Part shown: in pieces, positions 10,591 through 27,672 of the stretch
Position numbering within the stretch: the stretch's first letter is position 1
How the letters are laid out: every line of letters begins with the position of its first letter
From: an uncultured Chloroflexia bacterium
GTDB taxonomy: Bacteria > Chloroflexota > Limnocylindria > Limnocylindrales > CSP1-4
DNA: 64,000 nt
Reading direction: 5' to 3'
Assembly: GCA_963748625.1 (NCBI GenBank)
Contig: CAVVJT010000004.1
Span: 448,001-512,000, forward strand
Notes under the pieces: model-generated
The model's input: only the letters and a program-made list of their open reading frames with translations
Database searches by the model: none
Told to the model about the DNA's origin: nothing
Translations under genes and position numbers: made by a program

Positions 10591-10663
10591 GTTCGCTTCG
10601 GTTCCTTGTCGCAGAGACGATGACGCCGCCCCCGGAGCCGGGGACGGCATCGAACCGAGCGGG

Positions 10664-10756
10664 CCTGCTTCCTACACCGGTACGAGCCGGATCAGGTTCC
10701 GCGGGTCTGTGGCTTTGGGCCACACTCTCAGCGCTCGAAGCGCTCCCCGGAGGCGG
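10664..10756 (-). promoter_or_regulatory. TPP riboswitch
   Basis: Minus strand reads GGGGAGCGC..GCTGAGAG..GACCCGCGGAACCTGATCCGGCTCGTACCGGTGTAGGAAG, the THI-box consensus; a downstream GC hairpin lies at about 10621-10650. Confidence 0.95.
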
Positions 10757-10809
10757 ATATGCGGTTGTCCGCGGAGTCTACACCCCGGCAGCGGCCTCGA
10801 CCCTCGCGG

Positions 10810-21945: not shown

Positions 21946-22020
21946 TGGCGCGTGGCCTAATGGTATGGCACCTGACTCTGGATCAGGGGGTTCTAGGTTC
22001 AAATCCTAGCGCGCCAGCCA
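21946..22020 (+). tRNA. tRNA-Gln (anticodon CTG)
   Basis: Acceptor TGGCGCG/CGCGCCA, anticodon arm CCTGA-CTCTGGA-TCAGG, T arm CTAGG-TTCAAAT-CCTAG, G73, encoded CCA; TACACT -10 upstream. Confidence 0.97.
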
Positions 22021-23956: not shown

Positions 23957-25483
23957 CTACCGCAGGAACAGGTCGTAGGCCGCGCTGCCGTCCTCGGCGG
24001 CCCAGGGCAGCCCGAGCGAGTCGATGAAGGCGCGGAAGTCGCCCATCTCGGCCTCCGGGACCTCGAAGCCGGCCAGCACACGCCCGAAGTCCGCCCCGTG
24101 GTTGCGGTAGTGGAAGAGGGAGATGTTCCAGCGCCCGGCGAGCGCGTCGAGGAACCCCATCAAGGCCCCCGGGCGCTCCGGGAACTCCACGCGCAGCACC
24201 CGTTCGTCGCGGACAGCCGCCGAGCGTCCGCCCACCATGTGGCGCACGTGGACCTTCGCCGTATCGTCGCTTGAGAGGTCGGTGACGGCCAGGCCAGCCG
24301 CGCGGAGCCGCGAGACCAGGTCGGTCGCGTCGGCCTGGTCGCGCACGGCCACGCCGGCGAACACGTGGGCTGCCGCCCGATCCGCGAGGCGGTAGTTGAA
24401 CTCGGTGATGACGCGCCCATCGCCGAGCAGGGAGCAGAACTCGCGGAACGCGCCCGGCCGCTCGGGGATCGTGGCCGCCAGCAGCGCCTCGCGGTGCTCG
24501 CCCAGGGCCGCCCGCTCCACGATGAAGCCAAGCCGGTCGAAGTCGATGTTCGCGCCCGAGAGCACCGCAGCCAGGCGCAGGCCCTGCCGGCCGCTCTCGG
24601 CCGCCCACCGCCGCAGGCCAGCGACCGCCAGCGCGCCTGCCGGCTCCACCACCGCACGGGTGTCCTCAAAGACCTCCTTGGTGGCAGCGGCGATCTCGTC
24701 GTTGGTGACCCGGACCACGCCCGCGCAGTGGCGGCGGGCGATCTCGAAGGGCAGCGCACCCACCTGGGCAACAGCCACGCCATCGGCGAAGATGCCCACC
24801 GTCGGCAGGACGACCCGCTCCCCCGCCTCGAGGCTTCGCGCCATCGAGTCGGCGTCGTCGGGCTCCACCCCGATCACCAGCACCGACGGCCGGACCGCGG
24901 CCACGTACGCGGCGATCCCCGCGAGCAGCCCGCCACCGCCCACGGGCACGAAGATCGCGTCCACATCGCCCAGCGCGTGGTGGAGGATCTCGGGCGCGAC
25001 GGTCCCGGCCCCCGCGATCACATCGGGGTCGTCGAACGGGTGGATGAAGACCCGCCCGGTCTCGGCGGCCAGTGCATCGGCCCGGTCCTTGGCATCGGCG
25101 AAGACAATCCCGGCGAGCACGATCTCGGCACCCAGGTCGCGCACCGCATCCACCTTGATGGCCGGGGTGGTCGCCGGCATCACGATGACCGCACTGATGC
25201 CCAGCTCGCGGGCAGCCCACGCGACACCCTGCGCGTGGTTGCCGGCCGAGGCAGCGATGACGCCCCGCGCGCGCTCGGCGGCCGACAGGCGCGCGATCCG
25301 GTTGTAGGCACCCCGGAGCTTGAAGGAGTGGACGGGCGAGAGGTCTTCACGCTTGAGCAGCACGTGGCAACCGAGGCGTGCGGACAGGCGCCGGGCGGAC
25401 TCGAGCGGGGTCTCGCGGGCGGCGGCTGGAACGCGCGCCTCGAGGATCGCGCGGAGCAGATTGTCCAGGCTGGGGTCGGGCAT
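23957..25483 (-). CDS. ilvA: Threonine ammonia-lyase, biosynthetic
   Basis: LKREDL..SFKLRGAYN, ASAGNHAQG, PVGGGGL, two ACT-like domains (PERPGA, ISLFHYRNHGAD). Confidence 0.96.
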   Translation of the reverse strand: MPDPSLDNLLRAILEARVPAAARETPLESARRLSARLGCHVLLKREDLSPVHSFKLRGAYNRIARLSAAERARGVIAASAGNHAQGVAWAARELGISAVIVMPATTPAIKVDAVRDLGAEIVLAGIVFADAKDRADALAAETGRVFIHPFDDPDVIAGAGTVAPEILHHALGDVDAIFVPVGGGGLLAGIAAYVAAVRPSVLVIGVEPDDADSMARSLEAGERVVLPTVGIFADGVAVAQVGALPFEIARRHCAGVVRVTNDEIAAATKEVFEDTRAVVEPAGALAVAGLRRWAAESGRQGLRLAAVLSGANIDFDRLGFIVERAALGEHREALLAATIPERPGAFREFCSLLGDGRVITEFNYRLADRAAAHVFAGVAVRDQADATDLVSRLRAAGLAVTDLSSDDTAKVHVRHMVGGRSAAVRDERVLRVEFPERPGALMGFLDALAGRWNISLFHYRNHGADFGRVLAGFEVPEAEMGDFRAFIDSLGLPWAAEDGSAAYDLFLR

Positions 25484-25492
25484 GGGTGGACG

Positions 25493-25774
25493 CTACGCCT
25501 GCCGGCGGATCGCGCTCCAGATGACCCAGGCGCCGGCCACGATGCCCCCGATGTTGAGCGCCTGGCCGGCTGGCCCACTGAGCAGCGACGTGTCCGCGCC
25601 CGCCGGCGCCGTCGCCTGCGCGACCAGCAGGAACAGCGACACCAGGAGGATCACGATCCCGGCGACAAGGCGCTGCCAGTCCAGGCGCGCGGGCTTTGGC
25701 TCAGCATCCGCGGCAGGCGCCGGCTTGGACTCGTCCGGCTTCGGCTTGTCGGTCTGCTCATTTCGGTCGGGCAT
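25493..25774 (-). CDS. Small two-TM membrane protein
   Basis: 93 aa from MPDRNEQ; TAGGCT -10 lies 7 nt before the ATG. Confidence 0.65.
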   Translation of the reverse strand: MPDRNEQTDKPKPDESKPAPAADAEPKPARLDWQRLVAGIVILLVSLFLLVAQATAPAGADTSLLSGPAGQALNIGGIVAGAWVIWSAIRRQA

Positions 25775-25840
25775 GGCTGCAAGCCTACCCGACACTGGTG
25801 GGCCGGTCGTCCGCGCGCGGTATGATCGGCCGCAGGTCGC

Positions 25841-25912
25841 TGATGCGTGGCTCACGGTGAGCGTCCGGCGCTGAGCCGGAAGGTGCGGGTTCGACTCCCG
25901 GAGCGTCAGCCA
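25841..25912 (+). ncRNA. Non-canonical tRNA-Gln(CUG)-like cloverleaf in the glnS 5' leader
   Basis: TGATGCG-TG-GCTC-ACGGT-GAGC-G-TCCGG-CGCTGAG-CCGGA-AGGT-GCGGG-TTCGACT-CCCGG-AGCGTCA-G-CCA; TATGAT -10 at 25821. Confidence 0.8.
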
Positions 25913-25986
25913 ACTCCCCTGGGAGTGTGGTGCGCCGGTCCGCGAGTCACCTCTCCTCCCCGTGCACGCAGGTCGAAGGAGACGCG

Positions 25987-27672
<1,686 letters not shown>

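Follow-up and report, generated by a model that had tools for sequence, protein, structure and literature searches.

Why should a bacterium keep, directly in front of the gene for an aminoacyl-tRNA synthetase, a structure shaped like a tRNA of that very enzyme? The question is raised by a stretch of 64,000 nucleotides from an uncultured Chloroflexia bacterium (GenBank assembly GCA_963748625.1, contig CAVVJT010000004.1, positions 448,001 to 512,000), hereafter called the window, in which a cloverleaf resembling tRNA-Gln(CUG) precedes glnS, the gene for glutaminyl-tRNA synthetase (GlnRS). We find that this element is very probably a diverged, constrained, non-decoding and glnS-specific paralogue of tRNA-Gln(CUG). 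With the same high confidence we regard it as the first module of a unit that recurs in the bacterial family: a -10 box, tRNA-Gln(CUG) or its derivative, a structured leader of about 75 nucleotides, and glnS. On our best reading a tRNA gene has been co-opted here as a cis-regulatory module of glnS, with GlnRS as its putative reader.

The tRNA-like element and its transcription unit

Positions are counted from the first nucleotide of the window, and the features are collected in Table 1. ARAGORN calls the element a tRNA-Gln, with the anticodon ctg at position 31 of the call (25871-25873). The sequence and this call both bear out the preliminary description of the locus, made from the letters of the window, which had reported a full 72-nucleotide cloverleaf; from A76 of the element to the ATG of glnS the distance is 74 nucleotides. 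The Gln-type features named there can all be read: U1-A72, G2-C71, G10, the anticodon CTG, G73 and CCA (25909-25912), and TTCGA within a TTCGACT T loop. So can the departures from the rules of translating tRNAs, namely G33 (25870), the G7/A66 and G49/G65 mismatches and a D loop of five nucleotides, and the alignment by cmscan agrees, with the non-standard pairs flagged. The variable region has four bases, and C32 (25869) is able to pair with G38 (25875). On the Rfam tRNA model (RF00005) the element scores 29.2 bits, right at the gathering score (29), where an ordinary tRNA-Gln(CUG) of the window obtains 67.5; on R2, a covariance model built from the diverged tRNA-like element alone, it reaches 90.4 bits.

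The product of glnS scores 724 bits on TIGR00440 (cut-off 425.8) and contains the Pfam domain tRNA-synt_1c and two anticodon-binding domains. Folding energy was considered as evidence and rejected, for the element (z = -0.36, with 70 of 200 shuffles equally stable) as well as for the leader (z = -0.01). It is uninformative in a sequence of 70% G+C; the proof that the element exceeds chance is comparative.

The TATGAT hexamer pointed out earlier is present, and 57 of 60 related sequences have a TANNNT hexamer 11 to 15 nucleotides upstream of the point where the tRNA starts. Such a -10-like box was seen solely upstream of the tRNA, with no second one between tRNA and glnS. A strict two-hexamer sigma-70 scan of 25600-26100 gave no site at all. 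A terminator scan of the same interval found no terminator-like site, as had been claimed for the space between element and glnS. From the absent terminator and the single -10-like box we infer that element, leader and glnS are co-transcribed. The motif GGTCGC, directly 5' of the tRNA, is kept by almost every glnS-linked copy and by some of the ordinary copies away from glnS; it is probably a short 5' leader for removal by RNase P, and could alternatively be the region where transcription starts.

Table 1 Features of the glnS locus, followed by neighbouring features of the window and by elements elsewhere in the same genome
Feature	Position	Strand	Basis or remark
-10-like hexamer TATGAT	25821-25826	+	14 nt before the tRNA-like 5' end
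Conserved GGTCGC directly 5' of the tRNA-like element	25835-25840	+	Aligned upstream regions
tRNA-Gln(CUG)-like diverged cloverleaf	25841-25912	+	72 nt; ARAGORN, Rfam tRNA, R2 model, covariation in relatives
Helix H1: G73-C-C-A with UGGU (25928-25931), one bulged G (25927)	25909-25931	+	RNAalifold, minimum free energy (MFE) fold
Invariant GUGGUGCGCC block; like a T-box bulge, its UGGU complements the 3' end of the tRNA	25927-25936	+	Alignments A1, A2
Sequestrator hairpin: anti-Shine-Dalgarno (anti-SD) UCUCCU (25952-25957) with SD AGGAGA (25977-25982)	25936-25993	+	MFE fold
glnS, glutamine--tRNA ligase, 561 aa	25987-27672	+	TIGR00440 and Pfam
Ordinary tRNA-Gln(CUG), working paralogue	21946-22020	+	ARAGORN; Rfam tRNA 67.5 bits; 3.9 kb upstream
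Threonine dehydratase (PALP and Thr_dehydrat_C)	23957-25483	-	Divergent from the element
Open reading frame of 94 aa with a hydrophobic stretch	25493-25777	-	No Pfam match; divergent from the element
TPP riboswitch (RF00059)	10651-10759	-	62.4 bits, gathering score 54.3
GatB	G000:C10:110420-111283	-	374 bits; in the genome alongside GlnRS
Three T-box-like leaders (loci L120-L122)	G000:C10:740252-740346; G000:C6:98322-98416; G000:C4:205000-205106	-; +; -	Under the Rfam cut-off of 93 bits

Descent from a tRNA-Gln(CUG) gene

Relatives were searched with R1, a covariance model of the leader, in 151 genomes from 49 genera of the Chloroflexota family (Ca. Limnocylindrales). One copy was found in each of 21 genomes, which belong to 12 of the 49 genera sampled. 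A search for the exact pattern in one genome of each prokaryote species added 68 further leader-bearing stretches. The public records that carry the motif are labelled as Chloroflexota, many of them as Ca. Limnocylindrales, an order that NCBI taxonomy assigns to the class Ca. Limnocylindria. All the relatives compared are metagenome-assembled genomes.

Pooling of the model and pattern searches gave 72 distinct tRNA-plus-leader sequences. An ordinary tRNA-Gln(CUG) stands before the leader in 40 of them (one broken by a contig end), and the diverged form, as in the window, in 26. Two more have G33 and are otherwise different: L015 is nearly ordinary, and L045 is without its D arm. Three (L064, L110 and L103) have another sequence, or none, in place of the 5' part of the tRNA, and ARAGORN makes no tRNA call there; the last sequence (L100) is cut by a contig end. 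Among glnS loci of the same genus, 12 of 17 have a tRNA-Gln(ctg) call by ARAGORN directly upstream; seven of these calls are short (72-74 nucleotides, as in the window) and the rest have the ordinary 75. A further locus of the genus, L013, is broken by a contig end inside the tRNA. At L011 an ordinary tRNA-Gln lies upstream of glnS, separated from it by a spacer unrelated to the leader. Altogether, the ancestral and commonest state is ordinary tRNA-Gln(CUG) followed by the conserved leader and glnS, and the form in the window is a later derivative. The earlier idea of descent from a real tRNA-Gln(CUG) gene is strengthened accordingly by relatives that have an ordinary tRNA-Gln at exactly the same place.

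A separate full-length match of the tRNA-Gln(CUG) type occurs in all 26 genomes with a diverged copy, although in one (G211) it rests on a match of 85% identity together with the anticodon-loop motif in the locus. This ordinary copy is often found 1-35 kb upstream, on the same strand as the diverged one. In the genome of L015, an ordinary tRNA-Gln(CUG) lies 11 kb from the glnS-linked G33 copy. In three other genomes (G003, G007 and G118) an ordinary glnS-linked copy is the sole match of the tRNA-Gln(CUG) type that was found.

In the window, all four stems of the element differ from those of the ordinary tRNA-Gln at 21946, and the 3' flank ACTCCCCT after GCCA is common to both, just as the preliminary description stated. 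Downstream of the ordinary copy this ACTCCCCT is recognisable as a remnant of the leader. The ordinary copies of the window, L084 and L108 retain the leader remnant ACTCC, and those of L005 and L006 the same -10 box and GGTCGC 5' flank. These retained flanks imply that the duplication took in the tRNA together with its promoter and the opening bases of the leader, and the two window copies share their 3' flank because of it.

In the truncated or degenerate copies L064, L110, L103 and L045 the 3' half of the tRNA is letter-for-letter ordinary. An ordinary tRNA-Gln(CUG) was found elsewhere in one of the four genomes concerned (G223) and not in G073, which is 80% complete, G222 or G224. The rule that a degenerate glnS-linked copy is always accompanied by an ordinary tRNA-Gln(CUG) was dropped, as it fails in three of these four cases.

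A single origin of the diverged class was also considered and given up: on the GlnRS tree it needs five label changes, at least four of them forced by starred branches. This is a quick tree of 60 rows from which rows below 480 amino acids were dropped, and L063 and L047 have very long branches that probably stem from frame errors. One genome (G008) has two glnS genes on two contigs (loci L014 and L136, and contig C18), each with a diverged element and a nearby ordinary tRNA-Gln; one of the two glnS copies holds an in-frame TGA. The doubling may reflect a mixed bin or a recent duplication.

Constraint on the diverged form and its exclusive linkage to glnS

The diverged form is represented by 23 distinct copies. 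Pairing is kept in 95.9% of their cloverleaf pair cells, and both partners have changed in 6 of the 21 pairs. On five pairing measures, 500 column shuffles never attain the observed values, and slid registers give 36-44% pairing. Covariation in the glnS upstream regions of relatives had been put forward as a check, and it turned out in favour of the element: the cloverleaf has been kept by compensatory changes. These results indicate that selection acts on the element as a folded RNA.

The R2 model, which includes no leader sequence, was run on 70 genomes of the genus. It returned 27 matches, all full-length, at 80.9-100 bits in 26 of the genomes; ordinary tRNA-Gln(CUG) scores 51-67.5 bits on it and other tRNAs less than 49. 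The diverged form is glnS-linked in 26 of 26 fetched loci, with the leader and a GlnRS motif within 500 nucleotides. On the Rfam tRNA model, in a search space of 56 kb, none of nine diverged relatives reaches E<=0.1, against 66-71 bits for ordinary copies and 44.8 bits for the intermediate L015. The form also changes fast. At a GlnRS divergence that leaves 75-90% identity, ordinary glnS-linked tRNAs are 96.5% identical and diverged ones 84.7%, which amounts to evolution about four times faster at like GlnRS divergence.

Some positions do not take part in this change. All 23 distinct copies agree in U1-A72, G2-C71, G10, the core of the T loop (TTCGA) and G73-CCA, and GG is kept in the D loop. 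In about half of them the T stem contains a single bulged base (column 49).

Anticodon arm and GlnRS identity nucleotides

The family's ordinary tRNA has the loop C32-U33-C-U-G-G37-A38. In the diverged form, G33-C34-U35-G36-A37-G38 is unvarying in 23 of 23 distinct copies, so that 33 and 37 are G and A throughout, and position 32, C in 14 copies and U in nine, can always pair with G38 (14 CG and nine UG pairs). RNAfold predicts for the window an anticodon arm with a stem of six base pairs and a loop of five nucleotides. The diverged copies thus lack the anticodon loop of an elongator tRNA, with its seven bases, U33 and open 32-38 positions; they do have the cloverleaf, T loop, discriminator and CCA of one, apart from the bulged T stem in about half.

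In Escherichia coli, GlnRS recognises the identity set U1-A72, G2-C71, G3-C70, G10, Y34, U35, G36, A37, U38 and G73, and extends the anticodon stem through 32-38 and 33-37 pairs (PMC1483225). Eight of these ten elements (U1-A72, G2-C71, G10, C34, U35, G36, A37 and G73) are unvarying in the diverged form, if measured by an E. coli set that may not be that of the GlnRS of this Chloroflexota lineage. A37 is even a gain relative to the ordinary G37. The changes to G33 and A37 and at 32-38 would pre-form the anticodon arm as it is bound by the enzyme and would at the same time abolish the U-turn used in decoding. G33 occurs also in the near-ordinary L015 and in L045, from another genus (genome G073), which points to repeated or early selection of that change.

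A structured leader with a sequestered ribosome-binding site

Between the tRNA and the glnS start codon, the aligned relatives share about 75 conserved nucleotides, and no Rfam family matches this glnS leader. The preliminary description had placed a candidate operator in the glnS leader. Its linkage to glnS stands; what it overlooked is this conserved leader itself, with its CCA:UGGU pairing and its SD hairpin.

The tail of the tRNA is paired into the leader by the helix H1, which stacks on the hairpin ACUCC (25913-25917)/GGAGU (25922-25926). H1 is the RNAalifold consensus of the relatives and is found in the MFE fold of the window as well. Among 70 distinct leaders its cells are paired to 99.8%, with unvarying letters, so that covariation is impossible. 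The invariance is partly built in: 68 loci came from an exact pattern that spans H1, and the 21 matches of the leader model share its letters with R1 itself built from such sequences. The UGGU does not vary among the 70 distinct leaders; in its pairing to G73-C-C-A, position 73 contributes a G-U pair. The GUGGUGCGCC block that contains it resembles the T-box motifs GGUGGUACC and GGUGGCACC of the same genome.

The second structure is the sequestrator hairpin, whose outer pairs extend to the glnS start codon in the MFE fold of the window. By partition-function folding, the unpaired probability of the SD is 0.01 in the window, and the median over 57 leaders is also 0.01. Across relatives, four of its ten pairs have changed on both sides and flanking pairs lengthen the helix. 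The minimal leaders L102, L115 and L116 have no sequestrator: glnS starts directly after UGGUGCGCCG, and the sole SD-like GGAG sits inside H1, an arrangement that fits the notion that closed H1 means off. In both leader architectures a closed H1 accompanies a hidden SD.

Two further contacts were judged by eye and dropped. A helix of the leader UGGUGCG with the 3' acceptor strand could have seven to eight pairs in ordinary copies, and L073 turns pair 3-70 into C-G with the leader unchanged. A kissing contact of the anticodon with a CAG beside the SD was discarded, CAG not being universal.

A proposal for control of glnS by GlnRS

Very probably, after duplication had given a separate working tRNA-Gln(CUG), the glnS-linked copy diverged. 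U33 changed to G and positions 37 and 38 to A and G, the D loop and variable region became shorter and a T-stem bulge frequent, and the L-shape, CUG, U1-A72, G2-C71, G10 and the G73-CCA tail were kept. For the working of the unit we propose the following. In the primary transcript, G73-CCA and the next five bases would form H1 with GGAGU-G-UGGU of the leader. With the SD and the start codon locked in the downstream hairpin, this transcript would be translationally off by default. Free GlnRS would recognise the tRNA-like module via the retained identity nucleotides, on an anticodon arm pre-shaped like the GlnRS-bound form, its stem extended by 32-38 and 33-37 and C34-U35-G36 presented. Bound GlnRS might hold the transcript closed, for example by shielding the acceptor end from processing. 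Uncharged tRNA-Gln would titrate GlnRS, upon which the tail would be processed or released and glnS translated.

That a co-opted tRNA serves as an operator for free GlnRS had been the central suggestion of the preliminary description. It gains from the tRNA descent, the selection on a folded RNA, the exclusive linkage to glnS, the lost decoding features and the presence of most identity nucleotides. GlnRS binding and the direction of the switch go beyond conservation, structure, linkage and SD sequestration and are part of the proposal. We put the probability of GlnRS feedback through the element at roughly 0.4 to 0.45.

Several points weigh against such feedback. Two identity elements, G3-C70 and U38, are lost: 3-70 is A-U in 20 of 23 copies, and 38 is G. 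The clade is young, with 42 of 75 columns unvarying, and by a naive count the invariance of the six-base loop has a chance of about 0.04. On known structures, a tRNA extended at its 3' end cannot seat A76 in the active site of a class I synthetase, and binding would be partial. The ATG is 74 nucleotides away, so that direct occlusion of the ribosome site, as for thrS, is unlikely. The alternative 'on' fold lacks covariation support. In silico, removal of the first H1 strand raises SD access by at least 0.2 in only 4 of 57 leaders, and the median accessibility is 0.01 for RNAs starting from G73, 0.01 from A77 and 0.04 without that strand; some factor would thus be needed to open the SD.

The distribution gives further grounds for caution. 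L006, L007, L009 and L016 are without any leader, and the module is therefore dispensable. Conversely, the leader persists in L064, L110, L103 and L045 despite the loss of the 5' half or D arm, with no ARAGORN tRNA call at any of the four; leaders that outlive an intact tRNA imply that the leader does something without one. L119 is back to an ordinary tRNA although it is a close relative of the diverged L005. The leaders of these two are almost identical, and in L005 the diverged copy is accompanied by an ordinary one 1.1 kb upstream; L006 and L007, which belong to the same GlnRS clade, lack the leader wholly. L119 may have arisen through recombination of the glnS-linked copy with a nearby ordinary tRNA, and the pattern of the four loci suggests recombination between tRNA copies together with repeated loss.

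Finally, GlnRS is not the sole candidate partner. The genome encodes GatB as well as GlnRS, by which a tRNA-dependent amidotransferase coexists with direct glutaminylation. GatB reads U1-A72 (PMC9976931).

Alternative explanations

The element could be a processing module only, that is, a handle for RNase P and the tRNA 3'-end nucleases, whose cut sets the 5' end of the glnS mRNA and with it stability or translatability, with no binding of GlnRS. The ancestral unit does hold a real tRNA that needs excision from the same transcript, in which no terminator and no further -10 box came to light; the CCA tail and trailer lie buried in H1, and leaders survive with the tRNA 3' half alone in L064, L110 and L103. 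Processing enzymes are not known to read the anticodon, however, and CUG with its neighbours is unvarying in all distinct diverged copies while the stem below covaries. Nor would they need the pairable remodelling of positions 32, 33, 37 and 38, and removal of the tail or the H1 strand in silico hardly opens the SD, as given above. In favour of this reading, tRNA-like handles that tRNA enzymes cut are known, mascRNA among them (PMC9976931). On balance, we consider a role in processing alone unlikely.

The resemblance of the leader to T-boxes (RF00230, translational type) suggests instead a riboswitch acting in trans: the UGGU would sense the 3' end of uncharged tRNA-Gln, an antisequestrator would form and glnS would be turned on, with the cis tRNA a competitor or incidental. 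Both are synthetase leaders. The unvarying UGGU complements G73-CCA as UGGN of a T-box pairs with NCCA, and the 5' strand of the SD sequestrator could close the UGGN helix. The order of the glnS leader, with its GGGAG strand, UGGU stretch, small CGCG hairpin and CUCCU that alternatively pairs with the SD, copies that of the T-box discriminator (helix strand, UGGU bulge, small hairpin, SD-pairing return strand). If A76 of a tRNA bound to a T-box were joined to the return strand of the helix, the outcome would moreover be H1. Of the two competing folds the sequestrator is the more stable, as in T-boxes that require tRNA. The same genome also has T-box-like leaders, one before a valS-like gene and two, nearly identical, before trpE-like genes. 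In the order of Table 1 they score 59, 55.2 and 37.7 bits; they carry the T-box motifs GGGUGGCACCGCGG and AGGUGGUACCACG, and are probably translational-type T-boxes.

In contrast to a T-box, the glnS leader has no Stem I, specifier or contact to the tRNA body, and the tRNA that pairs with its UGGU is encoded in cis and covalently continuous with it. The whole-genome search with the Rfam T-box model finds the three other leaders and not that of glnS; in 25700-26050 this model has no match even at E<=10. Membership of the leader in the T-box family was therefore rejected. The antisequestrator (GGGAGU with ACUCCU, and the CGCG hairpin) is pairable in 90.3% of cells, but no pair has changed on both sides and 496 of 500 shuffles match its paired fraction. 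A relay in which the opening of H1 frees GGGAGU for ACUCCU and so releases the SD is unsupported by covariation and hardly supported by folding. Furthermore, the tail of a free tRNA would stabilise the off helix H1 (once nicked) as much as the on helix. A trans-acting riboswitch appears distinctly unlikely.

Less probable still is a tRNA that continues to work, as a minor CAG isoacceptor or as a glutamine donor for a non-ribosomal reaction, and merely shares the promoter of glnS. Co-transcription of tRNA genes with a gene for the translation apparatus is ordinary, as in the E. coli tufB operon. ARAGORN's call and the retained cloverleaf, D-loop GG, T loop, G73 and CCA would suit a functional tRNA, and a pseudo-tRNA of Bacillus cereus has a role outside translation (PMC3399842). 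These likenesses have to be set against G33 and the always pairable 32-38 in every distinct copy, with the stem and loop predicted from them, the T-stem bulge in about half, Rfam tRNA scores far below those of ordinary copies and the roughly fourfold faster evolution. In addition, the form was never away from glnS in the 26 loci fetched, and every traced genome that has it also has an ordinary tRNA-Gln(CUG).

A decaying, functionless pseudogene left by the duplication would account for the low tRNA score, the two mismatches of the window copy, the intact paralogue nearby and the loss or truncation in some lineages, but it is scarcely credible for copies whose compensated cloverleaf pairs, full length in all 27 R2 matches and unvarying anticodon loop and tail have been described above.

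Relation to known systems

We return to control by GlnRS. In E. coli, ThrRS binds mimics of the anticodon arm in the leader of its own mRNA, and the mRNA of yeast AspRS is comparable (PMC9976931). As in these cases, the glnS element is tRNA-like, has the cognate anticodon in the leader of the cognate synthetase and retains most of the E. coli identity nucleotides, and the logic proposed, feedback through competition of mRNA and tRNA for the enzyme, is alike (PMC9976931). The location corresponds as well: in each of the 26 loci to which the tRNA-like model by itself led, the leader and glnS follow immediately. Unlike thrS and AspRS, glnS has a whole cloverleaf with CCA, descended from a tRNA gene that is still in place in relatives. 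It also differs from thrS in its distance from the ATG and its coupling to a separate SD hairpin.

Transcripts such as that of tufB share with the glnS unit a tRNA before a translation gene, a promoter (putative for glnS) only before the tRNA and no terminator between the two. They differ in that the glnS tRNA is cognate to the encoded enzyme, has its tail paired into the leader and, in one clade, has a non-decoding look. A likeness of another kind is offered by mascRNA and the tRNAOther of B. cereus, which are tRNA-shaped, non-decoding and act via tRNA-binding proteins (PMC9976931, PMC3399842); in mammals, mascRNA binds GlnRS (PMC9976931).

A full-text literature search, judged on titles and the openings of abstracts, found no tRNA or tRNA-like element in a bacterial glnS leader and no control element for bacterial glnS. 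Possibly, then, the locus represents a new class of synthetase control, in which a whole cis tRNA or its decoy is fused to a module like the T-box discriminator and its own CCA serves as the 'ligand' strand for UGGU. Whether the hidden ribosome-binding site of glnS opens would depend on whether GlnRS binds the tRNA body or the tRNA is excised, and the duplication would have freed the cis copy in one clade to become a GlnRS-shaped decoy with its arm pre-folded as in the enzyme-bound state. We offer all three parts of this idea tentatively, as something nearer to one chance in three than to an even one.

Genomic surroundings

The genome measures 4.6 Mb in 10 contigs, with about 71% G+C and 59 tRNA calls by ARAGORN. 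Three of these are tRNA-Gln: UUG, the ordinary CUG copy and the glnS-linked element. A few other calls are over-long or odd (tRNA-Asp(atc), 91 nucleotides; tRNA-Ala(cgc), 98; tRNA-Pro(ggg), 93) and may be false calls or intron-bearing genes. The two neighbours of the element on the opposite strand and a riboswitch of the window are given in Table 1.

Significance

The control of bacterial synthetase genes is known from partial mimics of the tRNA (thrS) and from leaders to which free tRNA binds (T-boxes). The family described here holds a graded series, from an ordinary fused tRNA through a G33 intermediate with few changes to the remodelled decoy, truncations and loss of the leader. Along this series, the rise of a regulatory tRNA mimic out of a functional tRNA gene can be seen directly and put to the test. 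For these organisms, which are uncultured, sequences are the sole entry point. The CCA:UGGU pairing together with the SD lock is a compact, RNA-encoded handle, which could link tRNA processing or the occupancy of the synthetase to translation.

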